Of a stretch of 64,000 nucleotides of DNA, positions 7,303-61,866 are shown piece after piece. The position numbers and the translations under genes were made by a program. Source of the DNA: an uncultured Bacteroidales bacterium (GTDB taxonomy: Bacteria > Bacteroidota > Bacteroidia > Bacteroidales > WCHB1-69); NCBI GenBank assembly GCA_900319925.1, contig ONQE01000005.1, forward strand, positions 16,373 through 80,372. The letters run 5' to 3'. Positions within the stretch are counted from its first letter, which is position 1. Each line of letters starts with the position of its first letter. Below the pieces are notes generated by a model. The model saw nothing but the letters and a program-made list of their open reading frames with translations, did no database searches and had not been told where the DNA came from.

Positions 7303-7376
7303 TACAAATCACAAATCACAAATCACAAATCACAAATCACAATTCACAAATCACAAATCACAAATCACAAATCACT
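7303..7376 (+). repeat. H1 heptamer array (TCACAAA), about 10.5 units
   Basis: Reads tacaaatcacaaatcaca...atcact. It fills most of the 98-bp spacer between the RND pump stop (7372-7374) and the OMF start (7273). The pump's TGA lies in the last unit. Confidence 0.95.
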
Positions 7377-10300
7377 CCTTGCTCATTTCTAATTCCTCGC
7401 TCGCATCGCCCGGCGTCAGCTTCTCGTGCAATTTCTGGAAGAAGATGTAGAAGGCCGGGGTGACGAACAGGATGGCGATGATACCCACGATCATACCGCC
7501 GATGACGGTGAGCGACAACGACTTGTTACCCACGGCACCCGCGCCGCCTTCGACCGCCAGCGGGATCATACCGATCACCATGGTGGAGACGGTCATCAGG
7601 ATGGGACGCAGACGGTCCTTACAAGCACCGATGGCTGCGTCGAAGATGGACAAACCCTCCTCGCGCTTCTGGATGGCGAACTCCGTGATCAGGATGGCGG
7701 TCTTGGCCACCAAACCCATCAACATGATGACACCCGTCTGCACGTAGATGTTAGCGCCGACACCCATCAAGGATTCCAACGGACGGATGGTCAGGTACGC
7801 GCCGAAGAGTCCGAACGGGATGGAGAAGAGGACGGCGAAGGGGATGAACAACGAGTTGTAGAGGCAGGCCAAGATGAGGTAGATGATCAGGATGGCGATA
7901 CCGTAGATGAGGACGGTCTCGTTGGAGCCGGCACTTTCCGCCTCCTCACGGGCCATGCCGCCGTATTCGTAGCTGTAATCAGAGGGGAAAACCTCCTCCA
8001 TCACCTCGTCAACCGCTGTGCGCACGTGCGCGGTGGTGTAACCCGGGGCGGGCATCAAGGCCATGTTGTAGCACGGGAACAGATTGAAACGACGCTCCTG
8101 TGAAGAACCCAAACCTTCGGTCAGGGTGACAAACTCGGAGGCCGGTGCCATACCGCCCGATGTCGGCACAAAAATCTGGTTCAACGTGCCTGGCGCCATA
8201 CGGTAGATACTGTCGGCCTCGATCAGCACTTGATAGACCTTTCCGTACTGGATGTAGTTGCCGATATACCGACCGGCGAGGTTCGCGCCGATGGTGTTGA
8301 TGACCGTCTTCGGGGAGACCCCTTTGCGCTTGCAGGCTGCCGGATCAATAGTCAGACGGTATTTGGGAAAGTCCTGCGCGTAGGAGGAGGAGGCAAGCGC
8401 CACCTCCGGACGAGCCTGCATCTTCTTCGTAAATTCGGCACCCATATCCACAAACGTCTGGTTGTCGCCGGTTCCCGAACGGTCTTGCAAGTCGAGTTCC
8501 ATCATGGAACCGGTACCGTAACCGGGAATCTGCGGCATCTGGTACGGGGTGATCGTCGCTTCCGGAAGATTCACCATCGCCCAGCCGTAGATCTGCTTCT
8601 GTACAGCGGCGATGCTGTAGAAGGAGCGCTCTTCCCAATTCTTCAATCGCACCATCAACGTGCCGTAGTTGGTGCCCGCGCCGCCGTTGATCATGGAGTA
8701 GCCGGTGATGCCGCTCACGAGTTCGACCTCGTCGATGCCGCGCACGAAATCTTCCAACTTCTTGACGGTCGCTTCCGTCTCGTTGAGGTAGGTGCCGGAT
8801 GCCAAACCGACATCCACCATCATGAAGCCCTGGTCCTCCTGCGGCACAAGGTCTTTCTGTGCGGTAACCATCAACCACGCCATGCCGGCAGTGAAGACGG
8901 CTAACAGAATCCACGCGAAGGCGGGTTTCTTCATGAACTTGCCAACACCGCTCAGATATTTCTTCTCAATGGCATTGAAGGCGGTGGTGTAGCCCAACCG
9001 CACGTAGTAACTCAAACTCTTCTTTTCACCGTCCCCCTCTTGCTTCGGCTTGAACAGCAAGGCGCAGAGGGCGGGACAAATGGTCAAAGCCGACACGGCC
9101 GACAGCGCCACGGAGGCCGCCATGATGATACCGAACTGCATGAAGAAGGTGCCGGAGGTACCCGACATGAACGTCACGGGGATGAACACGGCCATGAAGA
9201 CCAACGCCGTGGAGATACAGGCGGCGGTCACCTCGCTCAAGGCGTCGTTGACGGCGGCCGTCGCACTCTTGTAGCCCGACTCCAACTTGGCCATGACCGC
9301 CTCCACCACCACGATGGCGTCATCCACCACCGTACCGATGGCTAGCACTAACGCAAAGAGTGTTAGTAGGTTGAGGGAGAAACCGACCACCTTGGCGACG
9401 GCGAAGGTGCCCACCAAGGAGATGATGATGGAGACCGAAGGCACGATGGTGGCCTTGAAGTCCTGCAGGAACAAATACACAATCAAAATCACCAAGATGA
9501 TGGCGATGATAAGCGTCTCGATAACACTGTGCATGGAGGCGTGCAGGAAGTCGTCGGAAGTCTCCAACTGCTTGAACTCCAATCCTGCAGGCAAGCTCTT
9601 CGAGAGTTTCTCGAGCACTTGGTTGATCTCGGCGTTGACCTGGGTGGCGTTGGCGCCGGGAGCCTGGTTGATGATGAACAGCACGCCCGGATGACCATCG
9701 ACATCGGTACGATAGTCGTAGGACTGGGTGCCCAGCTCCACATCGGCCACATCGGCCAAGCGCAGCAGGTTACCGTCCGGGGTGGCGCGCACCACGATAT
9801 TCTCGAACTCACTCATGTCGTTGAGCAGACCGTTGTATTCGATGTCGATTTTGTTGACGGTGCTCTCAAAACTACCGATAGGAGCCACGAGGTTTTGCTC
9901 GTTGATGGCGGCCGCAACTTCATCCGGGGAGATGTTGTACATACCCATCACGTCGGGTTTGAGCCAGATACGCACACCATAGACGTTACCGAGCAGCTGG
10001 GTACGACCCACGCCCGTGACACGGCTGACAGCGGGTATGACATTGATGTCCAGGTAGTTCGTGATGAACTTTTGGTCAAATCGGTCGTCGGTGCTCTCCA
10101 AGCTGAGAATCTGCAGGATGGAGTTCACGCTCTTGGTGACGGTCACACCTTGGGTGGTCACCACACTGGGCAGCAGACCCAAAGCGCGGTTCACACGGTT
10201 CTGCACATTCGTGGTGGCCTGGTCGGCATCGGTACCCTGCTTGAAATAGACGTAGATTTCCGCACTCCCGTTGGAACGGGCGGTGGAGGTCATGTACAAC

Positions 10301-10542
10301 ATGTCTTCCACACCGTTCACCTGCTCCTCAATCGGCATGATGACCGACTTCTGCACCGCGTTGGCGTCAGCACCGCTGTAGTTGGCCGTGATAATCACCA
10401 TGGGCGGGGCGATATCGGGGTATTGCTCAATCGGCAGCGTGAAGATGCTGAGCAGACCGACGAGAAGGATGACCACACCGATGGCGAACGCCGCCACCCA
10501 GTGCTTCACAAAGAATTTGGTTTTCTTGACGTTCTCTTCCAT
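7372..10542 (-). CDS. RND efflux permease (AcrB/HAE1-like)
   Basis: 1056 aa with 12-TM topology and two large periplasmic loops. Typical N-terminus FFVKHWVAAFAIGVVILLVGLLSIFTLPIEQYPDIAPP. Confidence 0.9.
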   Translation of the reverse strand: MEENVKKTKFFVKHWVAAFAIGVVILLVGLLSIFTLPIEQYPDIAPPMVIITANYSGADANAVQKSVIMPIEEQVNGVEDMLYMTSTARSNGSAEIYVYFKQGTDADQATTNVQNRVNRALGLLPSVVTTQGVTVTKSVNSILQILSLESTDDRFDQKFITNYLDINVIPAVSRVTGVGRTQLLGNVYGVRIWLKPDVMGMYNISPDEVAAAINEQNLVAPIGSFESTVNKIDIEYNGLLNDMSEFENIVVRATPDGNLLRLADVADVELGTQSYDYRTDVDGHPGVLFIINQAPGANATQVNAEINQVLEKLSKSLPAGLEFKQLETSDDFLHASMHSVIETLIIAIILVILIVYLFLQDFKATIVPSVSIIISLVGTFAVAKVVGFSLNLLTLFALVLAIGTVVDDAIVVVEAVMAKLESGYKSATAAVNDALSEVTAACISTALVFMAVFIPVTFMSGTSGTFFMQFGIIMAASVALSAVSALTICPALCALLFKPKQEGDGEKKSLSYYVRLGYTTAFNAIEKKYLSGVGKFMKKPAFAWILLAVFTAGMAWLMVTAQKDLVPQEDQGFMMVDVGLASGTYLNETEATVKKLEDFVRGIDEVELVSGITGYSMINGGAGTNYGTLMVRLKNWEERSFYSIAAVQKQIYGWAMVNLPEATITPYQMPQIPGYGTGSMMELDLQDRSGTGDNQTFVDMGAEFTKKMQARPEVALASSSYAQDFPKYRLTIDPAACKRKGVSPKTVINTIGANLAGRYIGNYIQYGKVYQVLIEADSIYRMAPGTLNQIFVPTSGGMAPASEFVTLTEGLGSSQERRFNLFPCYNMALMPAPGYTTAHVRTAVDEVMEEVFPSDYSYEYGGMAREEAESAGSNETVLIYGIAILIIYLILACLYNSLFIPFAVLFSIPFGLFGAYLTIRPLESLMGVGANIYVQTGVIMLMGLVAKTAILITEFAIQKREEGLSIFDAAIGACKDRLRPILMTVSTMVIGMIPLAVEGGAGAVGNKSLSLTVIGGMIVGIIAILFVTPAFYIFFQKLHEKLTPGDASEELEMSKE

Positions 10543-10544
10543 CG

Positions 10545-13270: not shown

Positions 13271-13280
13271 ATCGTTCCTT

Positions 13281-13436
13281 ATTCTTTACATCTACCGAGC
13301 TTTTACCCCTACGGGGTTGCTCAAGGAATTCTATTCTTTACATCTACCGAGCTCTTACCCCTACGGGCTTGCTCAAGGAATTCTATTCTTTACATTTACC
13401 GAGCTCTTACCCCTATGGGCTTGCTCAAGGAATCCT
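13281..13436 (+). repeat. 52-bp direct repeat, 3 tandem copies (REP-like unit with internal hairpin acccctacggggt)
   Basis: Units at 13281-13332, 13333-13384 and 13385-13436 differ at only a few positions. An inverted relative lies at 47335-47373. Confidence 0.9.
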
Positions 13437-13438
13437 AT

Positions 13439-13520
13439 TCACAAATCACAACTCACAAATCACAACTCACAAATCACAACTCACAAATCACAACTCACAA
13501 ATCACAACTCACAAATCACT
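13439..13520 (+). repeat. H1 heptamer array (alternating TCACAAA/TCACAAC, about 12 units)
   Basis: Reads tcacaaatcacaactcacaaatcacaac.... It directly follows the 52-bp repeats and ends 4 nt from the stop of the 13524 gene. Confidence 0.95.
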
Positions 13521-13523: not shown

Positions 13524-14333
13524 CTAGTACACAAACGGAAACACCCGTTTCAACTTCTTGCGCTCTATAATCTCGCCGAAGTCCACCTTGTAGCGCTTGT
13601 ACAGGGCGTCGGCGCGGGGCACGAGGTTCGCGAATGTCCAAATGAAGAAGACCAACCCCGGCAACGACCACGTCAGGATGGCGAATCCCAACCACTCCGT
13701 CAGCTCACCAAGATAGTTCGCGCTCGTAACGTATTCGAACATAAAGCCTTCCGGCAGATAATGGTTCGTGTCCTCGTCGCTCTTCCGCAAATGCCGGATG
13801 ATGTAGTCCGAGCGCAGGTTGATATAGAACCCGAGGAGGAAGATGACGAGACCGATGATGAACTGCGGCGACCACAGCCAGGCCGTGTCCTGGTAGGAGA
13901 GCCCGAAGGCGTGGTAGTCGCACTTGTACGATTCGAAGAATATCCAATAGCCCTGCATCACGGCGTTCAGGATGTTGAAGGCAATGCCGCAGAACATGAC
14001 GCTCAACGACATTTTGCTCGCCTTGCCCTTCATCAGCCAGGGAAAGATGATGGACCTTTGGAAATAGTGGACCTCGAAGACGAGGAGGAAAACCAACGGC
14101 ACGATGTCGAAACGGTGCGGGGAGAGCAGCCAGATGACAATCATGGCGAGGAAGATGGGGAACTCCATCAGGAACCAGGCCACCTTGTTGTTGATGGTCT
14201 TGCCCCATTTGTCGGATACAAACACGCCGTAGCCCGCCTTCACGAAGTAAAGCGTGACGAAAACCACCACGGCGACGGCGATCATCACCCAAAGGTAGAT
14301 ATTAAAGGCAGAAGTGAGAAATTCAGGAGACAT
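13524..14333 (-). CDS. 3-oxo-5-alpha-steroid 4-dehydrogenase-family membrane protein
   Basis: Multi-TM. The C-terminal motif YLPEGFMFEYVTSANYLGELTEWLGFAI is typical of the steroid 5-alpha-reductase/DUF1295 fold. Confidence 0.65.
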   Translation of the reverse strand: MSPEFLTSAFNIYLWVMIAVAVVVFVTLYFVKAGYGVFVSDKWGKTINNKVAWFLMEFPIFLAMIVIWLLSPHRFDIVPLVFLLVFEVHYFQRSIIFPWLMKGKASKMSLSVMFCGIAFNILNAVMQGYWIFFESYKCDYHAFGLSYQDTAWLWSPQFIIGLVIFLLGFYINLRSDYIIRHLRKSDEDTNHYLPEGFMFEYVTSANYLGELTEWLGFAILTWSLPGLVFFIWTFANLVPRADALYKRYKVDFGEIIERKKLKRVFPFVY

Positions 14334-16217: not shown

Positions 16218-16350
16218 CCCTTAAACTCTTAAACCCTTGAACCCTTAAACCCTTAAACTCTTAAACCCTTAAACCATAACCCTTAACCCTTAACCCATAA
16301 ACCTTAACCCATAACCCTTAACCCATAAACCTTAAACCTTAAACCTTAAC
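16218..16350 (+). repeat. H3 heptamer array (TTAAACC/TTAACCC/ATAACCC, about 18 units, some 8-nt units)
   Basis: Fills the spacer between the sppA start (16199) and the methyltransferase stop. The TAA stop at 16339-16341 and the last codons of the methyltransferase lie in the array. Confidence 0.95.
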
Positions 16351-17160
16351 CGAGTAACTCACATTCACCCCCCAATAAAAATGATTCCGCAAAAATGCAC
16401 TTTTCTTCCATATCCGCTGCTCCCTTTCAATGGTTTTTTCATAATTTTTTTCATCGAAGACAAAAGAGGGCAGACAGCGGATGTACTGGAGGCTCTCCTC
16501 GTCCCTGCGGAAGCCCGCCTTTTCGAAGTGCTTGCGCCACTCCTTCTCGGGGCGGATGTTCTCGTTGCCCATCAGCACCTCCTTGCCTAACACGTCGTCG
16601 TGGACGGTGATGATGCGCTTCCGGCCGCGCTGGGCGAACAGCATCGCGCTCTTGAACCAGCAGCCGCCGTTCTCCTCGATGAGCAGGAGCTTGCCGTCGG
16701 GCTTCAGCGCCTTGCGGAAGAGGGGCAGCGCCTCGTCCAACGGCTCGATGTGGTGGAGCGTGTCTTGCAGGATGATGTAGTCGTAGCGCTTCTCCTCGAT
16801 GGGTTGGTCGAAGAGGTTGGCATATTCGCAGGTGAGCAGCGAGGTGTCGCCGAAGCGGCTCCAGAACTGCTTGCGCTTCTCCCATTGGTCGGGGTAGTAC
16901 TCCAAGGTGGTGCCATATACGGGTTGCCCCTTCATGGCGAAGAAGAGACCGGTGGTGCCGTAGCCGCAGCCGCAGTCCCAGATCTTCGGCCCTTTGCTGA
17001 GGTCGATATGCCGGTCGAGGTATTGCAGGCGTTGCAGGAAGTAGGCCTTGCGGAACAGCTGTTGCGAGGGCGTCCCGTCCGTCAGCTTGTAGTACGGGTA
17101 GAGGCCGCGGTTCTCGCGCAGCTCCTCGCAAAGATGTTCGTAAAAGACCTCCGGCTGCAT
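16339..17160 (-). CDS. class I SAM-dependent methyltransferase
   Basis: SAM-binding motif IWDCGCGYGTTGLFFA. Downstream acidic loop DYIILQDTLHH. Confidence 0.75.
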   Translation of the reverse strand: MQPEVFYEHLCEELRENRGLYPYYKLTDGTPSQQLFRKAYFLQRLQYLDRHIDLSKGPKIWDCGCGYGTTGLFFAMKGQPVYGTTLEYYPDQWEKRKQFWSRFGDTSLLTCEYANLFDQPIEEKRYDYIILQDTLHHIEPLDEALPLFRKALKPDGKLLLIEENGGCWFKSAMLFAQRGRKRIITVHDDVLGKEVLMGNENIRPEKEWRKHFEKAGFRRDEESLQYIRCLPSFVFDEKNYEKTIEREQRIWKKSAFLRNHFYWGVNVSYSVKV

Positions 17161-46182: not shown

Positions 46183-46183
46183 C

Positions 46184-46232: not shown

Positions 46233-46234
46233 AT

Positions 46235-47477: not shown

Positions 47478-47480
47478 AAT

Positions 47481-51164: not shown

Positions 51165-51269
51165 ATAACCCCTAACCCTTAACCCCTAACCCTTAACCCC
51201 TAACCCTTAACCCTTAACCCTTAACCCCTAACCCTTAACCCTTAACCCTTAACCCTTAAACCATAACCC
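51165..51269 (+). repeat. H3 array, CCC-rich variant (CTAACCC/TTAACCC/CCTAACC, about 15 units)
   Basis: Reads ataacccctaacccttaacccctaaccc...cttaaaccataaccca. It ends 2 nt before the elbB ATG at 51272. Almost every unit has CCC or CCCC. Confidence 0.95.
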
Positions 51270-51913: not shown

Positions 51914-51946
51914 TGGTTATGGGTTAATGGTTATAGGTTAATGGGA
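51898..51946 (-). repeat. H3 array in reverse orientation (GGTTATG/GGTTAAT, about 7 units)
   Basis: Reads gatggttatgggttaatggttatgggttaatggttataggttaatggg. It contains both the elbB TAA (51911-13) and the TAA of the convergent four-helix-bundle gene (51938-40). Confidence 0.9.
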
Positions 51947-52321
51947 GGGCTGTAGGGCAGTGGAGAAGTGACGTCGTAGACCTGAAAGCATTTTAGCGAC
52001 GACGATAAATTGTGGTCTAAGTGCTTCTAACGAGGCTTCTGTGATGAAACCGAGGTCTAATGCAGTTTGTAGTTCACTGAATACCTCCATTAAAGACCCG
52101 AATGCGATTCCAATAAAGTAGGTCTTCTCTTTTATTGAAAATCTACCGCTTCCTTCCGCAATATTGGCGGTAATTGAGGCAGCAGCTCTCCTTATTTGGG
52201 AACTAAGTGCGAATTTTTCTTCAGGAGGTAATTGTTTTACAAGTTGATATACTTCCTTTACCAGTTTTCTGGATTCAGCATAAACTTCTAACTTTTCAAA
52301 TGAGAATCTTTCGTTGTCCAT
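51938..52321 (-). CDS. four-helix-bundle protein (23S rRNA intervening-sequence protein family)
   Basis: Motifs FEKLEVYAESRKLVKEVY, ...SQIRRAAASITANIAEGSGR and ...FIGIAFGSLMEV. Visibly AT-rich compared with the flanks. Confidence 0.75.
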   Translation of the reverse strand: MDNERFSFEKLEVYAESRKLVKEVYQLVKQLPPEEKFALSSQIRRAAASITANIAEGSGRFSIKEKTYFIGIAFGSLMEVFSELQTALDLGFITEASLEALRPQFIVVAKMLSGLRRHFSTALQPSH

Positions 52322-52417
52322 AAATAATTATATTTTGTTTGATTTATTCTATTAACGAATCAATAACGAAAATATTGCATGCTAATAAAAAAATCCCAAC
52401 AATAACCCTTCCATCTT

Positions 52418-52482
52418 CATAACCTACTAACCCATAACCCATAACCTACAACCTACAATCCATAACCCATAACCCATAACCC
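52418..52482 (+). repeat. H3 array (ATAACCC/ATAACCT/ACAACCT, about 9 units)
   Basis: Reads cataacctactaacccataacccataacctacaacctacaatccataacccataacccataaccc. It ends 3 nt before the aroK ATG at 52486. Confidence 0.9.
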
Positions 52483-52485
52483 AAA

Positions 52486-52944
52486 ATGACCACCGTCCTC
52501 ATCGGCTTCCCCGGTTCCGGGAAGAGCACCGTCGGCAAGCAGCTTGCCGAGCGGTTGGGTATGGCGTTCATCGACCTCGATGTGTATATCGAGGAGAAGT
52601 ACCACACGGCCATTCCCCTGCTCTTCGAGAAGTATGGGGAGGCGGCCTTCCGGACGTTGGAGTACGCCGCCCTCTGCGAGGTCTTGGAGCGCGAGGACGT
52701 CGTCATCGCCACCGGCGGCGGCGCCCCCTGCCACGCCGACGCCATGGACCGCATCAACGCCCGCGCCGAGAGCATCTACCTCCGCCTCTCCGAAGACCAG
52801 CTCGTCGAGCGCCTCCGCCAATCCAAGAAGAAGCGCCCCCTCACCGACTCCCTCTCCCTCCCCGCCCTCCGCCAATACGTCCACGACACCCTCGCCCTCC
52901 GCGAACCCTTCTACCTCAAAGCCCACACCGTATGGGATTTGTGA
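52486..52944 (+). CDS. aroK: shikimate kinase (short C-terminus)
   Basis: P-loop GFPGSGKST, then ...FIDLD and ...ATGGGAP. Length is 152 aa. The last codons and the TGA come from the H1-type array. Confidence 0.8.
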   Translation: MTTVLIGFPGSGKSTVGKQLAERLGMAFIDLDVYIEEKYHTAIPLLFEKYGEAAFRTLEYAALCEVLEREDVVIATGGGAPCHADAMDRINARAESIYLRLSEDQLVERLRQSKKKRPLTDSLSLPALRQYVHDTLALREPFYLKAHTVWDL

Positions 52945-53107
52945 TTGGTGACTTGTGATTGGTGACTTGTGATTGGTGATTAGTGACTTGTGATTGGTGA
53001 TTGGTGACTTGTGATTGGTGATTGGTGACTTGTGATTGGTGATTGGTGACATATCCCGCAGGCATTAACTACTAACTACTAACTGCTAACTGCTAACTAC
53101 TAACTAA
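52936..53107 (+). repeat. composite element: [TTGTGAT/TGGTGAC]n (52936-53050), 15-bp linker, [TAACTAC/TAACTGC]n (53066-53107)
   Basis: Same array order as the elements at 61053-61258 and 61691-61866. The linker ends in ggcat, as in the other two. Confidence 0.9.
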
Positions 53108-53146: not shown

Positions 53147-53154
53147 TATATTTG
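53147..53154 (+). promoter_or_regulatory. -7 box TATATTTG, candidate promoter of the capsule-export operon with a leader of about 190 nt
   Basis: Matches TAnnTTTG 200 nt upstream of the ATG at 53355. The leader contains hairpins at 53159-53184 and 53204-53231. Confidence 0.45.
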
Positions 53155-54208: not shown

Positions 54209-56683
54209 ATGCAGAAAAATACAAATAATACAGAACAAGCTGTCAGCTCTGCGCAGATCAAGAACCTATTTTACCAATGCTTGGCCAAATGGTATTGGTT
54301 CGTTATTTCCGTGGGCATTGTGCTCTTTGGTGCAGTCTTCTATCTGCTGAAGACCACCCCAGTCTATACCCGCACTGCCAAATTACTGGTCAAGTCCGAT
54401 AGTAAAGGCCGTTCAACGGGTGATATAAGCGATTTTTCCGACTTGGGTGTCTTTGGCTCCAGTGTGAATGTGAACAATGAGCTCATGACGATGAAGTCTC
54501 TCGATGTGATGACAGAAGTGGTGCGCCGTCTCCATTTGGACATGAACTACAGCCAGGACGGCCTCTTCCGCCCGGTGGTGCTCTACGACAAATCCCTGCC
54601 CGTGACTGCCATCTTGGTGGATGCGCCGGACAACATGACTGCTTCCTTTGATCTCAAGTTGGACAAGGGTGCTGTCACGCTGACCGATTTTGTGCGTGGG
54701 GATGAGGATTTGAGTGGTAAAGTCAGTGCGAAGTTTGGTGACACGGTGAAAACACCAATCGGTCTCATCTGCATCGAGAAAACCGATTTTTACAAGAATA
54801 AAAAATATGACAAGATTCATATCCGTCGCTCTACTATCAATGGGACGGCTCGCAGCTATGCCTCCCGGGTTAACGTCGGACTCGCCGGCAAGAATACCGA
54901 AGTGCTTGCACTTTTCGTGGAGGATATCAACAAGAGCCGTGGCGATGATATTCTCAATATGCTCATTGCGGTTTATAACGGTAATTGGCTCAAAGACAAA
55001 AACCAGATTACCGTCAGCACCTCCATGTTCATCAACGACCGTCTCCAAGTCATCGAGAAGGAGTTGGGAAACGTCGATAGCGATATTTCCTCCTATAAGA
55101 GCGAGAACCTTTTGCCCGATGTGGATGCGGTGTCCAGCATGTACCTCAACCAAAACCGAGAGGCTAACACCCGTATTAACGAGCTCAATAACCAGATATC
55201 GATTACCCGTTATGTTCGCAATTACCTGACCAACGAGACGGATAACAACCAACTCCTGCCTGTCAACACCGGTATCAGCAACGGTCATATCGAGAGCCAG
55301 ATTGCGAACTACAACACGATGATGCTCCGTCGCAATGGCTTGGTGGCCAACAGCAGTGAGCAGAACCCCCTTGTACTTGATTTGGATGAGAAGCTGAAGG
55401 CTATGCGTCACGCCATCCTCACCTCCATTGACAACCAGTTGGCCACGCTCAACACGCAGTTGGCTAACTTTCAGGGCACCGAGCGGCTCATCAATGCCCG
55501 TTTGGCCGCCAACCCCAAGCAGGCCAACTACCTACTCTCGGTGGAACGTCAGCAGAAGGTCAAGGAGTCACTGTACCTCTTCCTCCTGCAGAAACGTGAG
55601 GAGAACGAGCTTTCCCAGGCCTTCACGGCCTACAACACCCGCGTGATTGAGCATCCCAACGGCAGTAGCTCCCCCACCAAACCGCGCAAGACAGTGGTTT
55701 TGTTGGCCGCCCTCATCATCGGTATCGCCATTCCCATCGCCATCATCATCATTAAAGAATATCTCAACACCACAGTGCGCGGCCGAAAGGATCTGGAGAA
55801 GCTCACGATGCCCTTCATCGGCGAGATTCCGCTCTCCATCAGTGCCGAGGAGGAGAAGAAGAAAATCAAAGAGAAACGCAAGATGCTCCGCCGTAGCAAG
55901 CGCAAAGGGGTGGAACCCGAACAGGAGAAGGGCTTCGGCGGCGTCATCGTCGTCAAGCACGGCAACCGCAACGCCATCAACGAAGCCTTCCGTGTGCTCC
56001 GTACCAATATCGAGTTCATGACCAAGGGCAACGAGTCCAACGTCATCATGCTCACCTCCTTCAACCCGGGCTCTGGCAAGTCGTTCATCACGATGAATAC
56101 CGCCCTCACCCTGGCCATCAAGAACCGGAAGGTGCTGCTGATCGACGGCGACCTGCGTCACGCCTCCCTCTCCGCCTACATCTTCTCGCCCAAGCGCGGC
56201 CTGGCCAACTTCCTCGGCGGCCAGGAGAAGGATGTCCATGACGTCATCGTGAAGAGCGAGGAGTATCCCACTCTCAGCTATCTGCCGGTGGGCACCATCC
56301 CGCCCAACCCCACGGAATTGCTCGAGACCGAGCTCTTCGGCGAAACCATCAATATGCTGCGTAAGGAGTATGACTACGTCTTCATCGACTGTCCGCCTAT
56401 CGACATCGTCGCCGACCCGCAGATTATCAGCAACTACGTCGATCGTACCATCTTCGTGGTGCGTGTGGGTCTCTTGGAGCGCAGCATGCTGCCGGAACTC
56501 GAGGAACTCCACACCAGCCACAAGTACAACAACCTCTGCCTCATCCTCAACGGCGGTACCGGTGGCGACGGCCGCTACGGCTACAGCCGCTATGGCTACA
56601 ACTACAAGTACGGCTACAAATACGGCTATGGCCACAACTACTACGGCCACAGCTATTACCACAAAGAGGACGACGAACAATAA
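54209..56683 (+). CDS. polysaccharide chain-length determinant / tyrosine autokinase (Wzc-like)
   Basis: Wzz domain with two TMs. Walker A SFNPGSGKSF. C-terminal Tyr cluster YGYSRYGYNYKYGYKYGYGHNYYGHSYY. Confidence 0.85.
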   Translation: MQKNTNNTEQAVSSAQIKNLFYQCLAKWYWFVISVGIVLFGAVFYLLKTTPVYTRTAKLLVKSDSKGRSTGDISDFSDLGVFGSSVNVNNELMTMKSLDVMTEVVRRLHLDMNYSQDGLFRPVVLYDKSLPVTAILVDAPDNMTASFDLKLDKGAVTLTDFVRGDEDLSGKVSAKFGDTVKTPIGLICIEKTDFYKNKKYDKIHIRRSTINGTARSYASRVNVGLAGKNTEVLALFVEDINKSRGDDILNMLIAVYNGNWLKDKNQITVSTSMFINDRLQVIEKELGNVDSDISSYKSENLLPDVDAVSSMYLNQNREANTRINELNNQISITRYVRNYLTNETDNNQLLPVNTGISNGHIESQIANYNTMMLRRNGLVANSSEQNPLVLDLDEKLKAMRHAILTSIDNQLATLNTQLANFQGTERLINARLAANPKQANYLLSVERQQKVKESLYLFLLQKREENELSQAFTAYNTRVIEHPNGSSSPTKPRKTVVLLAALIIGIAIPIAIIIIKEYLNTTVRGRKDLEKLTMPFIGEIPLSISAEEEKKKIKEKRKMLRRSKRKGVEPEQEKGFGGVIVVKHGNRNAINEAFRVLRTNIEFMTKGNESNVIMLTSFNPGSGKSFITMNTALTLAIKNRKVLLIDGDLRHASLSAYIFSPKRGLANFLGGQEKDVHDVIVKSEEYPTLSYLPVGTIPPNPTELLETELFGETINMLRKEYDYVFIDCPPIDIVADPQIISNYVDRTIFVVRVGLLERSMLPELEELHTSHKYNNLCLILNGGTGGDGRYGYSRYGYNYKYGYKYGYGHNYYGHSYYHKEDDEQ

Positions 56684-56784
56684 CCCCTAACCCCCAACCT
56701 CTAACCCAGACTCCTTAAATCCTAACCCTTAAACCCTAAACCATAACCCTTAACCCTTAAACCTTAACCCTTAAACCTTAAACC
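56681..56784 (+). repeat. H3 array (degenerate CTAACCC/TTAACCC/TTAAACC, about 14 units)
   Basis: Starts at the Wzc-like TAA (56681-83) and ends 1 nt before the TTG at 56786. Confidence 0.9.
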
Positions 56785-56785
56785 A

Positions 56786-57484
56786 TTGTTCCGCAAATAC
56801 CCCATCGACTCCCAGCTGACCGGCTTCACCGACCACCACTCGCACATCCTCTTCGGGGTGGACGACGGCGTGAAGACCCTCGAAACCTCCCTGAAAGTGC
56901 TCCATCGCTACGAGGAACTTGGCGTCGCCGAAGTGTGGTGTACGCCCCACATCATGGAGGACATCCCCAACACCCCGGAGAGCCTGCGTGCACGCTTCGC
57001 CGAGCTGCAGGCCGCCTACCAGGGTCCCGTCAAACTCCACCTCGCCGCCGAGAACATGATGGACCAGCTCTTCGAGGAGCGCCTCGAGGCCAATGACCTC
57101 CTCCCCCTCGGCGAGACCGGCAACCATCTCCTCGTGGAGACCTCCTACTTCACCCCGCCGATGGGGATGAAGGACATCCTCCGGCGTATCAAGTCCAAGG
57201 GCTACTTCCCCGTGCTCGCCCATCCTGAGCGCTACGTCTATATGGACAAGGACGACTACCGGGAGCTCAAGGGCATGGAGATCCTCTTCCAGGTCAACCT
57301 CTCCTCCCTCGCTGGCGGCTATGGCCCCGAGGCCGAGGACAAGTCGCACTGGCTCCTCAAGAAGGGGTTCTACGACCTCGCCGGCTCCGACCTCCACTCC
57401 CTCCGCAACACCCAGTTCTGGTCCAAACCCCTCCGCGAGTCCGTGATCAACCCGCTTAGAAAGATACTGGCGAGTTCGATTTAG
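56786..57484 (+). CDS. CpsB/YwqE-type (PHP-fold) tyrosine-protein phosphatase
   Basis: Motifs DHHSHILFGVDDG, ...CTPH and ...LAHPERY. The only in-frame start after the upstream stop (TAA 56780-82) is TTG at 56786. Confidence 0.7.
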   Translation: MFRKYPIDSQLTGFTDHHSHILFGVDDGVKTLETSLKVLHRYEELGVAEVWCTPHIMEDIPNTPESLRARFAELQAAYQGPVKLHLAAENMMDQLFEERLEANDLLPLGETGNHLLVETSYFTPPMGMKDILRRIKSKGYFPVLAHPERYVYMDKDDYRELKGMEILFQVNLSSLAGGYGPEAEDKSHWLLKKGFYDLAGSDLHSLRNTQFWSKPLRESVINPLRKILASSI

Positions 57485-57522: not shown

Positions 57523-57603
57523 ATCACCCACCACCTACCACTCACAAATCACCACTCACAAGTCACAAATCACAATTCACAAGTCACAAATCACAAATCA
57601 CCA
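57523..57603 (+). repeat. H1 array (TCACAAA/TCACAAG/TCACCAC, about 11 units, degenerate at the 5' end)
   Basis: Reads atcacccaccacctaccactcacaaatcaccactcacaagtcacaaatcacaattcacaagtcacaaatcacaaatcacc. It is followed by aaaaaa and the rfbB ATG at 57609. Confidence 0.9.
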
Positions 57604-57608: not shown

Positions 57609-58659
57609 ATGAGAAACATCATCATCACCGGCGGAGCCGGATTCATCGGCAGCCATGTGGTACGGCTGTTCATAAACAAGTACCCCGAATACAACATCAT
57701 CAACATCGACAAACTCACCTACGCCGGGAACCTCGCCAACCTCAAGGATGTCGAGGGCAAGCCCAATTACAAGTTCGTCAAGATGGACATCTGCGACTTC
57801 GAGGGCATCCATCGGCTGATGCAGGACGAGCATATCGACGGCGTCATCCACCTCGCCGCCGAGAGCCACGTGGACCGCTCCATCAAGGACCCCTTCACCT
57901 TCGCGCAGACCAACGTGATGGTCCACCGATGAGGTCTATGGCGCCCTGGAGATGACCCATCCCGACGGCATCGAGCCCCCCTTCACCACGAAGGCCTCCT
58001 CTGGCGAGCACCACCTGGCCTACGGCGAGAAGTTCTTCACCGAGGACCTCAAATACCAGCCCCACAGTCCCTACAGCGCCGCCAAGGCCGCCAGCGACCA
58101 CTTCGTGCGGGCCTTCCACGACACCTACGGGATGCCCACCGTGGTCACCAACTGCTCGAACAACTACGGTCCGTACCAGTTCCCCGAGAAGCTCATCCCC
58201 CTGTTCATCAACAATATCCGCCACCGCAAGCCGCTGCCCGTCTATGGAAAGGGCGAGAACGTGCGCGACTGGCTCTATGTCGAGGACCACGCCCGCGCCA
58301 TCGACCTCATCTTCCATAAAGGCAAGGTGGGCGACACCTACAACATCGGCGGCTTCAACGAGTGGAAGAACATCGACATCATCAAGGTGCTGATCAACAC
58401 GGTGGACCGGATGCTGGGCCGTCCCGAAGGTGCCGACATGGATCTGATCACCTACGTCACGGACCGCGCCGGCCACGACATGCGCTACGCCATCGATTCC
58501 ACCAAGCTGCAGCGCGAGCTGGGCTGGGAGCCGTCGCTCCAGTTCGAGGAGGGCATCGAGAAGACCGTCCGCTGGTACCTCGACAACCAAGACTGGATGG
58601 ACAACGTCACCTCCGGTGACTACATGAAGTATTACGAAGATATGTACGCGAACCGGTAG
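57609..58659 (+). pseudogene. rfbB: dTDP-glucose 4,6-dehydratase, disrupted by an internal deletion and frameshift
   Basis: The N-terminal ORF 57609..57932 (GGAGFIGSH...AAESHVDRS...TNVM) hits a stop. The +1 frame continues STDEVYGALE...YSAAKAASDH... to 58659. About 28 codons that I expect between TNVMG and STDEVYG are missing. Confidence 0.8.
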
Positions 58660-58660: not shown

Positions 58661-58905
58661 AGCGCGCTTCGCTTGCTTTGTTGCTCGCTGCGCGAGTTTT
58701 GTTGCGCGCTTCGCTTGCAAATGTGCTCGCTGCGCGAGCTTTTTTAATTTCACACAGAAATCACAGAAATCACAGAAAATTGTGCGCTGCGCTTACAATT
58801 AGGCTCGCTGCGCTCGCTTAAAATCACAGAAAGTTGCGCGCTACGCTTGCAATTGCGCTCGTTTAATATTCGCTGCATGCAGCGTTTGAACCATAAGAAT
58901 AAAAA
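58661..58905 (+). repeat. left flank of the GxxExxY cassette: 41-bp unit x2 (gcgcgcttcgcttgc...gctcgctgcgcgag) plus 9-mer ATCACAGAA x3 and further partial copies
   Basis: Tandem units at 58663-58745. cacacagaaatcacagaaatcacagaaaa at 58751-58779. It is inverted relative to 59383-59500. Confidence 0.85.
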
Positions 58906-58917
58906 GAAATTATCAAT

Positions 58918-59289
58918 ATGACCGAAAACGATATAACATACAAAATTAGAGGTGCCATTTATGATGTGTACAGCGTGTTGGGGCCGGGGTTGTTGGAGTC
59001 GGTGTACGAAGAAGCCCTTGTGTTTGAACTGGAACAGCGAGGACTGAAAGTGCAAAGACAGGTAACCGTGCCTATCGTGTACAAAGGCGTAACCCTCAAA
59101 TCAGAACTCCGTGCCGATCTGATCGTGGAAGACCAGGTCATCGTAGAGATCAAATCCGTCGAAGAGATGAAGAAGGTCTTCAGCAAACAACTGCTCTCCT
59201 ACCTCCGCCTAACGCACAAAAAGTTAGGCCTCCTGGTAAACTTCAACACCCCCGACATCCTCAAATCCATCTATAGAATAATCAATTAA
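58918..59289 (+). CDS. GxxExxY protein (PD-(D/E)XK superfamily)
   Basis: 123 aa. Carries the motif GLLESVYEEAL, which gives the family its name, and ...DLIVEDQVIVEIKSV. Confidence 0.8.
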   Translation: MTENDITYKIRGAIYDVYSVLGPGLLESVYEEALVFELEQRGLKVQRQVTVPIVYKGVTLKSELRADLIVEDQVIVEIKSVEEMKKVFSKQLLSYLRLTHKKLGLLVNFNTPDILKSIYRIIN

Positions 59290-59382
59290 CCCACCCCCTC
59301 ATTCCCCCTCTTCCCTCATTTCCCCTTCCGCCTCAATCATCTTCTCCCAGCAATCACCATAGCCATCGATCTAGCGCATTTA

Positions 59383-59500
59383 CGAGCGAAGCGAGTAACT
59401 TTCTGTGCTTTCAGCGAGCGAAGCGAGCAAATTTCTGTGCTTTAAAAGCGAGCGAAGCGAGCCCATTTCTGTGATTTCTGTGATTTCTGTGTGACATTTA
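59383..59500 (-). repeat. right flank of the GxxExxY cassette: (gagcgaagcgag.aa.tttctgtgcttt) x3 plus TTTCTGTGA x3, the inverted counterpart of the left flank
   Basis: 59466-59493 tttctgtgatttctgtgatttctgtgtg is the reverse complement of 58751-58779. Confidence 0.85.
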
Positions 59501-59542
59501 AAATTCAAATTCGCCGCAGGCGAACCAAAAAAATACCACCAA

Positions 59543-60604
<1,062 letters not shown>

Positions 60605-60622: not shown

Positions 60623-61045
60623 TCATCGCGGCTGGAGGTCTTGGTACTCCTCCCTCGCGTCGAAGCAGGGACAGGCTTTGGTAGGGTCGAAGACATTGTG
60701 CCCCACAATCAGGGCTTTCGGGTATTTGGCGTGCAGCTCCTTGATCAGCGCGCGCAGGACCCGCTTCTGCAGCGTCGTGCGGGTGTCCTCCGGCAGCCCT
60801 TCGGTGTCGAGGCCGCCCTCATAGCAGACCCCGATGCTGTGGGCGTTGTGATACTGGCAGTGGGCGCCGATCATCTCCACCGGTCGTCCGGCCTCCACGG
60901 TGCCGTCGCGGCGCACCACGAAATGGTAGCCGCATCCGTATTTCCACCCGCGTGCCCGATGCCAGCGGTCGATCTCCTTCACGCCGCTCCGCTGCCCCGG
61001 CCTCACCCCACTGCAATGAATGATAATTAAAGTGATAGTTCTCAT
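60623..61045 (-). CDS. N-acetylmuramoyl-L-alanine amidase (Amidase_2, AmpD/T7-lysozyme-like)
   Basis: 140 aa. Motifs IIIHCSG, ...GYHFVVRRDG, ...GAHC..HN..SIGVCYEGG and ...IVGHN. Confidence 0.8.
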   Translation of the reverse strand: MRTITLIIIHCSGVRPGQRSGVKEIDRWHRARGWKYGCGYHFVVRRDGTVEAGRPVEMIGAHCQYHNAHSIGVCYEGGLDTEGLPEDTRTTLQKRVLRALIKELHAKYPKALIVGHNVFDPTKACPCFDAREEYQDLQPR

Positions 61046-61052
61046 TTTGTTT

Positions 61053-61258
61053 GACTTTTGATTGGTGACTTGTGACTTGTGACTTGTGACTTGTGACTTG
61101 TGACTTGTGATTTGTGATTTGTGATTTGTGACTTGTGACTTGTGATTTGTGATTGGTGATTAGTGACTTATGCCATGACATCAACGATGAAGTGGGCATT
61201 AACTACTAACTGCTAACTGCTAACTACTAACTACTAACTACTAACTGCTAACTCCTCA
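61053..61258 (+). repeat. composite element: [TTGTGAC/TTGTGAT]n (61053-61167), 32-bp linker, [TAACTAC/TAACTGC]n (61199-61258)
   Basis: The linker ttatgccatgacatcaacgatgaagtgggcat is about 26/32 identical to the linker at 61802-61833. The TGA of the 61256 gene lies at the array end. Confidence 0.92.
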
Positions 61259-61612
61259 CGGTTTTTCCGCCAGCTCCATCCTCAGCTGGTTCATCTTCTC
61301 CGAGACCTTGATATAGTAACTGCCGATCTCCGAGAGGCCGAGGATCATCGCCTCCGGGAAATCCATCCGGAGCGCCACCAGCAGATCGACGAGTGTCTCG
61401 TGCTGGATGGGGTTGTCCACGTTCTGAGAACGGGACACGTGGATTCCGATCGAGCTGCTGTTATAGCCGTCCGGGTCGATGCGCCGGTCGAGGATGTTCA
61501 CCGGCTTGCGGATATGGAGCTTCTTCTCCACGAAGCCCTTGCGGTTGACCGAATAGTGATGATCGCGCCGCTTCCCGCAGTCATAGACAATAATATATTG
61601 TATTGGACGCAT
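61256..61612 (-). CDS. hypothetical protein, possibly a degenerate Amidase_2 paralogue
   Basis: 118 aa. Colinear weak matches to the neighbouring amidase: IIVYDCG vs IIIHCSG, HYSVNRKG vs YHFVVRRDG, SIGIHVS vs SIGVCYE. The predicted Zn-ligand His residues are not conserved. Confidence 0.45.
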   Translation of the reverse strand: MRPIQYIIVYDCGKRRDHHYSVNRKGFVEKKLHIRKPVNILDRRIDPDGYNSSSIGIHVSRSQNVDNPIQHETLVDLLVALRMDFPEAMILGLSEIGSYYIKVSEKMNQLRMELAEKP

Positions 61613-61690
61613 AGTGACTGATTTTTAGTTGGACATAATTTCAGTTTGACGTAATCGGTTTCAAGCATCCCTCCCACCCACCCGCTTGAG

Positions 61691-61866
61691 AATTGTGACT
61701 TGTGATTTGTGAATTGTGACTTGTGATTTGTGATTTGTGATTTGTGATTAGTGATTAGTGAATTGTGATTAGTGATTAGTGTGATTAGTGTGATTAGTGA
61801 CTTATGCCATAACATTAACGATAAAGAGGGCATTAACTGCTAACTACTAACTACTAACTGCTACTC
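61691..61866 (+). repeat. composite element: [TTGTGAC/TTGTGAT/TAGTGAT]n (61691-61801), 32-bp linker, [TAACTGC/TAACTAC]n (61834-61866)
   Basis: Third copy of the same architecture. The TGA of the 61865 gene lies at the array end. Confidence 0.92.

Follow-up and report, generated by a model that had tools for sequence, protein, structure and literature searches.

By the account of Mrazek (2007; cited in PMC4679880 and PMC4692102), no class of long simple-sequence repeats is more abundant in prokaryotes than heptanucleotides. Slippage of the polymerase has been put forward as the origin of the heptamer repeats (PMC4679880; PMC4692102). Three tandem heptanucleotides were reported from Calothrix PCC7601 (cited in PMC4692102), and TAACTGA heptamer repeats are known from Beggiatoaceae, Cyanobacteria, and five Bacteroidetes (PMC4679880). 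In the latter the TAACTGA arrays are intergenic, lie in forward orientation just upstream of starts and in reverse orientation after a stop, and share spacers with other heptamer repeats (PMC4679880). The 64,000-nt stretch of DNA analyzed here (the window), from an uncultured Bacteroidales bacterium of the cattle rumen, carries arrays of three heptamer families, H1 (TCACAAA), H2 (TAACTRC), and H3 (CCCTTAA and similar units), and like the TAACTGA arrays these are intergenic heptamers beside starts and stops. They belong with the heptanucleotide long simple-sequence repeats, the cyanobacterial tandem heptamers, and the TAACTGA repeats, so the view of the initial annotation, which knew of no described element class in Bacteroidota with such properties, is not upheld. 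(TCACAAA)3 and (TAACTRC)3 are moreover widespread across many phyla, and such arrays occur also in the complete genome of Desulfonema magnum and in contigs of 3–4 Mb. What is unusual for the known class is the array density and the strict start/stop orientation rule; in the literature searched we did not find the H1, H2, and H3 families, the host lineage, this array density, or the polarity rule, nor did we find cases in which strains carry different families at one site with unchanged polarity.

All 21 arrays of the initial annotation were recovered in the window by Tandem Repeats Finder, and their summed length of 1568 nt agrees with its hand count of about 1.6 kb. Individual arrays are 30–134 nt long, a range to be read in the light of the short-read origin of all assemblies compared, in which arrays above ~140 nt would go undetected or break contigs. 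In an autocorrelation scan of the window, period 7 gave 19 runs (1303 nt), while periods 4–6 and 10–12 gave none, period 8 one, and period 9 three, so that the 7-nt signal stands far above chance. The period of 7 thus holds, but calling the arrays strict overstates their regularity, since H3 arrays contain 3–6% indels and several arrays show 14- or 21-nt super-periods; likewise, the array said to start at 57523 is real but opens with degenerate units and is clean only from 57542. The arrays occupy 29% of the intergenic DNA (1445 of the 1568 nt, within 4976 nt) and ~0.2% of the coding DNA of the window, and 14 of its 37 spacers carry one. Their distribution is patchy, as first described, with 17–29 kb array-free. 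The only truly intragenic array is indeed that at 60294–60357, but many of the others run a few bases into the upstream stop codon and so do not lie purely between coding sequences. An artefact of sequencing or assembly might be suspected from the available assemblies all being short-read metagenomes and from the position of arrays at contig ends in many loci from collection scans. This reading is effectively refuted: about ten independent metagenome assemblies from different samples have the same arrays at the same places with flanks identical to the base, the array lengths are below read length and k-mer length, and arrays of the same heptamers occur in the complete D. magnum genome and the 3–4 Mb contigs.

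The arrays are oriented with respect to the genes that they adjoin (the strand given below is that on which the G-poor unit reads). Before pheS, the H3 array 46184–46233 (+), G-free in the sense strand, ends 2 nt ahead of the ATG (46235), and G-free H3 arrays end 3 nt ahead of the ATG of a TMEM260-like gene (47481; array 47421–47478, +), of a DJ-1/PfpI gene (51272; array 51166–51269, +, 14.9 units), and of the shikimate kinase gene (52486; array 52418–52483, +). The H3 array 56681–56786 (+), with a G-poor sense strand, fills the entire spacer from the TAA stop of a Wzc-like gene to the TTG start of cpsB (56786). H1 arrays occupy corresponding positions, reading TCACAAA in the sense strand at 57542–57601 (+), which ends 7 nt before the ATG (57609) of a dTDP-glucose dehydratase gene, TCACAAG (sense strand −) at 61052–61169 (−), which ends ~7 nt before an amidase ATG (61045), and TCACAAT/TCACTAA (sense strand −) at 61693–61800 (−), ~80 nt upstream of the ATG at 61612. 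After stop codons the sense strand carries the complementary kind of unit. For H1 it is TTTGTGA (sense strand +) immediately after the peptidyl-prolyl isomerase (PPIase) stop at 46065–46182 (−) and TTGTGAT at 52939–53050 (−), an array with a 21-nt super-period that contains the TGA stop of the shikimate kinase gene (52942–52944), and the sense strand is G-rich at 13439–13519 (+), where TCACAAA/TCACAAC units in a 14-nt super-period follow the stop of the − strand gene 13524–14333. For H2 it is GTAGTTA, beginning at the pheS stop codon at 47257–47303 (−), running on the − strand from the TAG stop of a 4945-aa gene at 30169–30221 (+; TAACTRC), which is followed by a G+C-rich hairpin with a TTTT tail, and, again on the − strand, standing immediately after the stops of gene 61256–61612 (array 61200–61253, +) and of a 64-aa gene, 61865–62059 (array 61834–61863, +). 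For H3 it is GGTTATG, in the array 51899–51944 (−) that spans the DJ-1 stop (51913).

When counted over Pfam- or database-verified genes of the window, arrays after stop codons have a G-rich, C-poor sense strand by 8:0 and arrays before start codons a G-free or G-poor one by 8:1 (Fisher p = 4e-4). The start-adjacent arrays that break the rule are those at 7304 and 16218. The former (H1; 7304–7375, +; TCACAAA, 10.3 units; sense TTTGTGA) lies between the stop of an AcrB-type pump gene (7372) and the start of an outer-membrane-factor gene (7273), and the latter (H3; 16218–16351, +; CCCTTAA(A) with indels; sense G-rich) fills the spacer from a methyltransferase stop (16339) to the SppA start (16199), all four genes being on the − strand. 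Unrelated loci outside the window gave 76:17 after stops and 31:8 before starts, a statistic that cannot tell "G-free before start" from "G-rich after stop" because a wrong-strand gene call converts the one case into the other. Seven pre-start arrays (578 nt) are devoid of start codons, and RNA folding energy is predicted at 0.0 kcal/mol/nt for them, −0.26 for segments taken at random from the window, and −0.14 for array-less leaders; A is found at −3 in six of seven start-adjacent arrays, as read from the sequence, and stops in all three frames occur in eight of nine post-stop arrays. Initiation in Bacteroidetes depends on weakly structured mRNA, an A at −3, and AUG depletion near start codons (PMC6847099; PMC7797042), and the start-codon-free pre-start arrays, predicted to be unfolded, fit initiation in Bacteroidia, which ignores Shine-Dalgarno sequences.

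The arrays are hypervariable by whole units. In seven comparisons of near-identical strains (0–1 SNP per 6–21 kb each), the sole indels were +14, −21, and −14 nt, all within arrays, and in a strain 1.4% diverged the indels (−21, −52, and −7 nt) were also confined to arrays, with none elsewhere in the aligned sequence. By site, the differences among strains are −21 and +35 nt at 7304–7375 and −14 and −7 nt at 13439–13519, while the array 16218–16351 is 52 nt shorter in strain L284, 46065–46182 is 14 nt longer in L001, 52939–53050 is 21 nt shorter in L002, and 61052–61169 is ~33 nt shorter in L291–293. At two sites H1 or H3 alternates between strains with polarity kept, as in the spacer of the 57542–57601 H1 array, where L291 has an H3 array of unchanged polarity. 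In a sister species (pheS 92% identical) the corresponding spacers hold arrays too, which are shorter, consist of other heptamers, and likewise vary in copy number, with an H3-like array at the 47421–47478 position. Upstream of DJ-1 the hairpin GTAGAGACGCGCCCCAGCGCGTCTCTAC (51133–51160, +), which precedes the H3 array here, is kept in the sister species L122 but is followed there by a TAccTTTG promoter, not by an array; the array 51166–51269 takes the position of the sister's DJ-1 promoter and leader. Relatives at 87% and 79% identity have no arrays in those spacers, which are 3–63 nt long versus 143–220 nt here.

Such variation could itself be the selected function, the arrays being adaptive contingency loci in which copy number is a heritable, reversible expression dial for capsule, LPS-sugar, and efflux genes. 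There is a precedent in the hmw adhesin genes of Haemophilus influenzae, where more copies of an (ATCTTTC)n heptamer in the 5′ UTR lower expression (PMC12721329); whole-unit copy number is the main difference between strains here, and the densest stretch (53–61 kb) includes genes for capsule export (Wza, Wzc, CpsB) as well as the dTDP-glucose dehydratase gene and galE. Within galE (UDP-glucose 4-epimerase, 59543–60604) the H1 array 60294–60357 (+; TCACAGC/TCACAAA) is in frame, its 63 nt amounting to 21 codons and adding a loop of 14 residues that solved GalE structures lack, and any change not a multiple of three units would turn the gene off. However, both galE alleles (63 and 102 nt) are in frame, with no OFF variant in the window, L290, or L291, and housekeeping genes are flanked equally (pheS, shikimate kinase, PPIase, DJ-1, SppA, and the AcrB-TolC pair). 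We therefore regard a contingency function as unlikely, although it overlaps with the explanation that we favor.

We propose, as the probable explanation, that these are slippage-made, microsatellite-like heptanucleotide arrays filtered by translational constraints. Strand slippage in DNA replication or repair would gain or lose one to five whole units at once, and loops of at least 7 nt would evade mismatch repair, which together would make the arrays by far the fastest-changing sites of the genome. An array would grow through its spacer, possibly overwriting ancestral sequence, until it meets sequence protected by selection, usually a stop on one side and a start on the other, and gene expression would then filter the arrays that survive. 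Beside a start codon the surviving orientation would be that with the G-free sense strand, since this gives a leader without AUG, GUG, or UUG and unable to fold; these arrays end A-rich, which would suit Bacteroidia ribosomes with their open, AUG-poor, A-rich initiation regions. Beside a stop codon the G/T-rich, C-poor orientation would survive, offering TGA, TAG, or TAA in all three frames and perhaps keeping C-rich naked RNA from the termination factor Rho. Because start-abutting arrays leave no room for a promoter, they are presumably transcribed as 5′ leaders or as inter-gene RNA of operons, with a possible effect on translation. The one in-frame array would be tolerated in a surface loop of GalE. 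Slippage alone, however, does not account for the same three heptamers in six to eight separate spacers each, nor for minor variants common to separate arrays, namely TCACAAG, present in five of eight H1 arrays, and the A/G alternation at position 6, seen throughout the six H2 arrays. It also leaves unexplained why TCAC is fixed in the H1 units here (92 of 93, with positions 5–7 variable) when no position of this heptamer is constant in its arrays in other genomes, which suggests either sequence-specific selection or dispersed arrays that exchange sequence or share an origin.

Sequence-specific selection would be expected if the arrays were platforms for DNA-binding proteins, one 7-bp unit per dimer, serving as operators, insulators, or nucleoid-organizing sites. 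The ribbon-helix-helix protein omega/ParB of plasmid pSM19035 binds contiguous 5′-WATCACW-3′ heptads, of which at least four are needed for function (PMC9499535). In the omega register the commonest H1 unit, AATCACA, is an omega heptad, 52 of ~105 H1 units match WATCACW, and every H1 array exceeds the four-heptad requirement; the fixed TCAC and the restriction of H2 variability to position 6 are also motif-like. H2 arrays lie directly upstream of both canonical TAnnTTTG promoters in 45–58 kb, one (45228–45273, +) in a divergent promoter region, ending 12 nt upstream of the PPIase Bacteroidetes-type −7 box TATCTTTG (45285–45292), the other (53066–53106, +) 40 nt upstream of the capsule-export (Wza/Wzc) −7 box TATATTTG (53147–53154). 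Omega sites, however, include inverted heptads, whereas the window arrays are purely direct (no inverted heptads), and nowhere do the units here vary more than at position 2 (A) of the omega heptad. Neither the window nor the adjoining 8 kb was found to hold a gene of the ribbon-helix-helix or omega family, each of the three families and of the many genome-specific heptamers elsewhere would call for a separate protein, and the TCAC core varies in other genomes. The start/stop-linked orientation and the polarity-keeping family swaps also fit a constraint at the RNA or coding level better, and we consider binding platforms decidedly improbable.

A further reading makes the arrays components of a non-autonomous, MITE-like or cassette-like element, such as an H1–linker–H2 unit, inserting at gene boundaries, or has such an element seed them. 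The families do recur in order, as first noted, H1(reverse)–linker–H2 being seen three times: the linker TTATGCCATGACATCAACGATGAAGTGGGCAT (61170–61199) has a second copy at 61801–61833 with four differences (28 of 32 nt agree) and a shorter variant at 53051–53065, joining the arrays 52939–53050 and 53066–53106. Three H2 arrays have the left edge GGCAT in common and two the right edge TAACTCCTCAC, the same families fill many spacers, and inverted arrays bracket small genes (23S_rRNA_IVP, PDDEXK_3), with 51899–51944 and 52418–52483 forming such a pair around an inserted 23S_rRNA_IVP gene. Against this, no transposase was found in the window, and the arrays have neither unique terminal inverted repeats nor target-site duplications, the sole inverted repeats being arrays that face each other, and the earlier exclusion of transposase, MITE, and, for want of unique spacers, CRISPR stands. 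The linker was not found in any other fetched locus, its ~30-nt form occurs only twice, both times in the window, and the near-identical copies, 600 nt apart, could be a local duplication; in the related genome L182, H2 and H1 are arranged in the same way around an unrelated linker, and close strains differ by unit number, not by gain or loss of whole composites. A mobile element is thus very improbable. Under the preferred reading of slippage with a translational filter, strain-to-strain differences in spacer length, among them those in the cluster of capsule and sugar-nucleotide genes, would arise as a side effect, a regulatory benefit, if any, being conjectural.

Tandem Repeats Finder recovers all 21 arrays where the initial annotation had placed them, with 4-18 units each, and on re-reading of the sequence the units of the three families, H1 (TCACAAA and variants), H2 (TAACTAC/TAACTGC) and H3 (TTAACCC-like), are as they had been described. 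The period had been called strict, and the 7-nt unit stands, but the H3 arrays contain indels and several arrays have 14- or 21-nt super-periods. A period-specific autocorrelation scan of the window gives 19 runs at period 7, covering 1303 nt, compared with none at periods 4-6 and 10-12, one at 8 and three at 9, and the summed Tandem Repeats Finder spans of the arrays come to 1568 nt. Location was judged from the gene calls of a codon-usage model trained on Pfam-verified genes, which were cross-checked against Pfam and against the database calls on identical contigs. Greedy longest-ORF calling was dropped, as in this genome of 55-60% G+C it chose antisense ORFs, which gave mirror-image artefacts when polarity was counted. 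The arrays are concentrated in the 4976 nt of spacer DNA (7.8% of the window), which holds 1445 of the 1568 array bases, so that they occupy 29% of spacer DNA versus about 0.2% of coding DNA. At least one array is present in 14 of the 37 spacers of the window, arrays occur about once per 3 kb, and entire spacers are filled. The sole array inside a gene (60294-60357) inserts 63 nt in frame into a UDP-glucose 4-epimerase gene and corresponds to 14 extra loop residues relative to solved GalE structures. About 17 kb of the same genome flanking the window contains four short arrays upstream and none downstream. Approximately 9 kb upstream of window position 1 (locus L295, positions 12-95) there is an H1-reverse array (GACTTGT/GACTTGA) and, 16 nt past it, an H1-forward array (TCACAAA/TCACAAG); the pair precedes a thioredoxin gene, is an imperfect inverted repeat and, like the composite spacers of the window, runs from G-rich to C-rich.

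The locus recurs, by exact-protein look-up, in about ten metagenome assemblies that are independent of one another; some of these, at least, come from the public cattle-rumen metagenome project PRJEB21624, and the proteins are labelled as from a 'Bacteroidales bacterium' MAG. Among near-identical strains (seven comparisons in five assemblies, with 0-1 SNP per 6-21 kb), only three indels are present, each of them whole units within an H1 array: +14 nt at 46096, -21 nt at 52983 and -14 nt in the 13439 array. A strain with 294 SNPs in 20.8 kb has indels of -21, -52 and -7 nt, each within an array, and no indel outside the arrays in the aligned sequence, with an alignment break only at a 52-nt tandem repeat (13336-13384); a +35 nt indel among the strains is likewise confined to an array. 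These comparisons show that the arrays are the fastest-evolving sites of the genome and change in steps of one to five units. The possibility had been raised at the outset that the arrays would be missing from independent long-read assemblies; the ten or so (short-read) metagenome assemblies reproduce them, and an assembly artefact is ruled out. The 52-nt tandem repeat itself (3.1 copies with the core ACCGAGCTCTTACCCCTACGGGCTTGCTCAAGGAAT, at 13280-13440) directly adjoins an H1 array, and its copy number varies too, as the strain alignments break within it. A single relative of this repeat adjoins an H2 array in an unrelated rumen contig (L149:3290-3330).

The class to which these arrays belong is known, and the window is a new and very dense member of it from a rumen Bacteroidales. 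Heptanucleotides are the most abundant of the prokaryotic long simple-sequence repeats (LSSR), and polymerase slippage has been proposed as their origin (Mrazek 2007, as reported in PMC4679880 and PMC4692102); three tandem heptanucleotides from Calothrix PCC7601 are cited in PMC4692102. Other published heptamer repeats are GGGAATC in Xanthomonas and GGGGAYT in Nostoc, and the Xanthomonas arrays differ in length and sequence among close relatives while their location is often kept (PMC4692102). TAACTGA repeats have been described from Beggiatoaceae, Cyanobacteria and five Bacteroidetes (MacGregor 2015, PMC4679880), and the statement in the initial annotation that no such class had been described in Bacteroidota is therefore incorrect: its observation was sound and striking in degree, but not the first of its kind. 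The arrays have three features of LSSR, namely tandem 7-nt units beyond chance, intergenic location and whole-unit length polymorphism, and they share with the LSSR and cyanobacterial heptamers the head-to-tail arrangement, several families per genome, a strong intergenic bias, length and sequence variation among close relatives with location often kept, and a sporadic phylogenetic distribution. They differ in their unit sequences (TCACAAA, TAACTRC and TTAACCC-like), in having one G-free strand, unlike the G-rich, quadruplex-forming units of those repeats, in their host, an uncultured rumen Bacteroidales, and in a density at which whole spacers are filled. Those reports contain neither a rule that ties array orientation to starts and stops nor a site where one family has replaced another, both of which are documented here, and a string search of the literature with the units found no description of these exact three families. 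Contiguous 7-nt units without spacers exclude CRISPR, with its 23-50-nt repeats and unique spacers, as had been noted from the sequence. A MITE or mobile cassette is rejected as well, and the early remark that no classical terminal-inverted-repeat structure is present holds, as an inverted-repeat search yields only array-versus-array matches, that is, arrays facing each other; target-site duplications are likewise absent. The linker, a short unique sequence that joins H1-reverse and H2 arrays (61170-61199 and 61801-61833), has only these two copies in the window, 600 nt apart, and is absent from about 290 other loci.

At least 119 stretches of species-representative genomes contain an exact (TCACAAA)3. 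Among the matches listed, Bacteroidota account for about 40% of the records by a rough count and include many rumen Bacteroidales MAGs, Paludibacteraceae, Aequorivita, Lentimicrobiaceae and Rikenellaceae, while the other carriers listed include Acidobacteriota, Planctomycetota, Cyanobacteria, Desulfobacterota and candidate phyla. The motif is present in the complete genome of Desulfonema magnum, some of the listed contigs are 3-4 Mb in length, and (TCACAAA)3 loci elsewhere often lie near other, genome-specific heptamer arrays. (TAACTRC)3 is found in at least 120 metagenome stretches and 34 viral contigs. None of the 119 listed H1 species-representative loci or of the H2 metagenome and viral loci that were fetched overlaps the window. 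Two rumen metagenome loci that are not assignable to the genome of the window (L182 and L149) carry H1, H2 and H3 together, with a similar density and the same arrangements.

All three families are strand-asymmetric, with one strand lacking G or nearly so, and their orientation depends on the gene end that they adjoin. Specifically, for arrays within 30 nt of a stop codon in the window, the sense strand is G-rich and C-poor in 8/8, while for those within 30 nt of a start codon the sense strand is G-poor in 8/9, at 0-12 nt from the start (Fisher p = 4e-4). In composite spacers the orientation switches in mid-spacer: on the plus strand at 46064-46235 the order is stop codon, TTTGTGA array, TTAACCC-type array and ATG, and on the minus strand at 61256-61045 it is stop codon, GTAGTTA array, linker, TCACAAG array and ATG. 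At loci of unrelated organisms the pooled polarity counts are 76:17 and 31:8; this count is unaffected by a wrong-strand gene call and merges the start side with the stop side, so all that it establishes is a G-poor strand that reads towards the neighbouring gene.

Bacteroidia ribosomes operate without Shine-Dalgarno pairing, low mRNA structure and an A at -3 tune initiation, and AUG is depleted near start codons (PMC6847099, PMC7797042). Over their 578 nt the seven pre-start arrays lack ATG, GTG and TTG altogether, their predicted RNA folding energy is 0.0 kcal/mol/nt, compared with -0.26 +/- 0.09 for random window segments and -0.14 for array-free leaders, and an A is read at -3 in six of the seven. 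Judged by their sequence, with no AUG, no predicted structure and a richness in A, they match the Bacteroidia initiation profile exactly. Eight of the nine arrays that follow stop codons have stops in all three frames. Promoters of this host were sought with a TAnnTTTG scan, and just two canonical matches lie at 45-58 kb, each closely downstream of an H2 array. As pre-start arrays abut the ATG and this region has only these two canonical promoters, the pre-start arrays are therefore probably transcribed, either as leaders or as intergenic RNA within operons. Scans for sigma-70 promoters and intrinsic terminators, using a tool that lacks Bacteroidetes promoters, gave no more matches than in shuffled sequence, and no known RNA families or tRNAs were found in the window. 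TCACAAA-type arrays are free of stop codons in all frames. On the minus strand at 60819-61199 and 61498-61833, spurious ORFs of 111-126 aa (MPTSSLMSWHKSLITNHKSQ...) extend from the H1-H2 linker through H1 arrays and, because these arrays are stop-free, read through into the next gene; the long antisense ORFs of real genes likewise end within arrays, and both effects mislead length-based gene calling.

The TAACTGA repeats are mostly forward and a few nt from starts without Shine-Dalgarno sites, one reverse set directly follows a stop codon in Flexibacter litoralis, and other heptamers share their spacers in Gramella, Aequorivita and Elizabethkingia (PMC4679880). The arrays of the window are similar in being mostly intergenic, with the G-poor orientation a few nt before starts and the reverse after stops, and H2 has TAACT in common with TAACTGA. 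However, the H2 units are TAACTAC (17) and TAACTGC (13) with no TAACTGA in the window arrays, the pre-start position is taken by H3 and H1 while H2 itself is found after stops or upstream of promoters, and the copy number reaches 17-18 units versus 2-6 in most TAACTGA sets. The (ATCTTTC)n repeats in the 5' leaders of Haemophilus influenzae hmw1A and hmw2A (11-63 copies) also have 7-nt units in rapidly changing, strain-variable number, but they belong to single dedicated adhesin loci and act via a hairpin with a G-rich partner and RNase III, whereas arrays of the window type number in the dozens, mostly flank housekeeping genes and are predicted to be structure-free.

In a sister species (pheS 92% identical), the PPIase-pheS-TMEM260-DJ-1-shikimate kinase order is kept and the spacers have heptamer arrays that are shorter, of other units and strain-dependent in copy number: the 20-nt PPIase-pheS spacer is filled by (TTGATAA)3, an H3-like CTTTAAC array lies upstream of the TMEM260 gene, and AAGGCAA, GAAACTT and AGCTTAA arrays are present at other sites. 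Relatives with 87% and 79% identity have no arrays over 21 kb, and their spacers are 3-63 nt long versus 143-220 nt at the same places in the window. Upstream of DJ-1 the sister species has a hairpin, a TAccTTTG promoter and a short leader, whereas in the window an H3 array of 105 nt runs from this hairpin straight to the ATG. The hairpin is kept but the promoter and leader are replaced by an array, and we therefore conclude that ancestral spacer sequence is overwritten by the arrays. In the GalE loop and in the cpsB-rfbB spacer, the window has an H1 array where a diverged strain has H3, with strand polarity unchanged. A hairpin of the form GTAGAGACGCG-loop-CGCGTCTCTAC is found downstream of genes at 51133-51160 in the window, at L122:14790-14818 in the sister species and at L149:10060-10090, each time preceding a promoter or an H3 array, and can be described as a REP-like or terminator-like element of the lineage.

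Several further features lie near the arrays. A 23S_rRNA_IVP (four-helix-bundle) gene on the minus strand (51938-52321) separates DJ-1 from shikimate kinase and has an H3 array on either side, the two being inverted relative to each other (51899-52483), and the sister species has only a 53-nt array-filled spacer at this site. The dTDP-glucose 4,6-dehydratase (rfbB-like) gene at 57609-58659 is split into two ORFs (57609-57932 and 57952-58659) because of an 83-nt deletion after 57921 relative to the otherwise identical strain L290, which like other strains has an intact gene of 377 aa; the split gene is either a strain-specific pseudogene or an assembly lesion. A PDDEXK_3 (GxxExxY-type) gene (58918-59289) lies within a region (58741-59503) that looks like an inserted cassette, flanked by 39-53-nt inverted repeats that include 9-nt tandem arrays, CACAGAAAT x2.9 (58753-58778) and ATTTCTGTG x3 (59465-59491), with further 34-42-nt repeats at 58662-58743 and 59383-59477. 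The minus strand at 30216-45053 encodes a 4945-aa protein with fibronectin type III (fn3) repeats and a C-terminal Por_Secre_tail (type IX secretion); its gene has internal repeats of about 1.1 kb with 76% identity (37512-38619 and 41879-43005), and its called length is 4923-5093 aa across assemblies. Other repeats are a 71-nt unit x2.1 at 29594-29743 and, at the 3' end of the window, a 22-nt unit x2 at 63659-63702, TGCGAAAACAA x3.7 at 63793-63831, recurring at 63977-63997, and TTTCGCCCC x4.7 at 63914-63955. Immediately after the window, the roughly 8 kb beyond position 64000 (L290:1-8600) carry a HepT/nucleotidyltransferase toxin-antitoxin pair, a SocA_Panacea protein and AAA_15/AAA_21 ATPases, where other strains have a RelA_SpoT-domain gene instead; this stretch looks like a variable defence island and has no heptamer arrays.

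Could the arrays be sites for a protein of the omega/ParB kind? The commonest H1 unit, AATCACA, is the 5'-WATCACW-3' heptad of the pSM19035 ribbon-helix-helix protein omega/ParB, with one dimer per unit (PMC9499535), and the inc18 parS/operator heptads are similarly contiguous 7-bp units, at least four per array, adjoining promoters. We nevertheless regard such protein-binding arrays as improbable. The consensus fits about half of the H1 units (52 of about 105, with at least two in each H1 array), the A at its position 2 is the most variable position in H1 here, and none of the eight H1 arrays contains an inverted heptad, versus mixed direct and inverted heptads in omega sites. Omega sites have 7-10 units and are located on Firmicutes plasmids beside the omega and delta (ParA) genes, whereas the H1 arrays consist of direct units only, reach 17 units and lie on the chromosome. 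A Pfam scan (E <= 0.1) of ten small or unannotated proteins from the 3' part of the window and adjoining L290 gave no match to ribbon-helix-helix or Omega_Repress families, and the start/stop rule together with family replacement argues for a constraint at the RNA or coding level.

We now put forward, as the likely explanation, that the heptanucleotide arrays are made by slippage and that their orientation is filtered by the tolerance of the adjacent gene end. The arrays would arise by slippage and grow into spacer DNA that nothing protects, and their orientation would be under a selective filter set by the tolerance of the neighbouring gene end; we infer that variable copy number may in addition bring a benefit. 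For the TAACTGA repeats a dedicated RNA-binding regulator and horizontal spread have been proposed (MacGregor 2015, PMC4679880), and our analysis favours the passive filter over that proposal. Slippage with a filter does not explain why each family occupies 6-8 separate spacers of the window, why minor unit variants are common to different arrays, or why the cores are invariant, the H1 TCAC core being unchanged in 92/93 units and H2 varying only at position 6. Conservation of the TCAC core is not universal, as variant units in TCACAAA arrays of other genomes differ at every position. The invariant cores and common variants in the window suggest either lineage-specific sequence recognition or exchange or common descent among dispersed arrays. 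It is conceivable, although we consider it unlikely, that the G-free arrays are a selected cis-element system in Bacteroidia, and perhaps in Cyanobacteria and large sulfur bacteria, in which pre-start arrays would be start-free and structure-free ribosome landing pads, post-stop arrays would be C-poor trailers with stops in three frames, and copy number would be a heritable, rapidly mutable expression setting for each gene. If this were so, the cores (TCAC, TAACT-C and TAA) and common variants would reflect a dedicated factor or active copy-and-exchange.

Whether heptamer arrays are a by-product of slippage or an element used by the cell is an old question, and it is testable in this lineage because its spacers are nearly one third array, polarity is kept through family replacement and the pre-start arrays suit Bacteroidia ribosomes. 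In this lineage, indels between strains come mainly from the arrays, which also break short-read assemblies, mislead ORF callers and can overwrite promoters, effects that are relevant to the annotation of rumen Bacteroidales and to the calling of strain variants.
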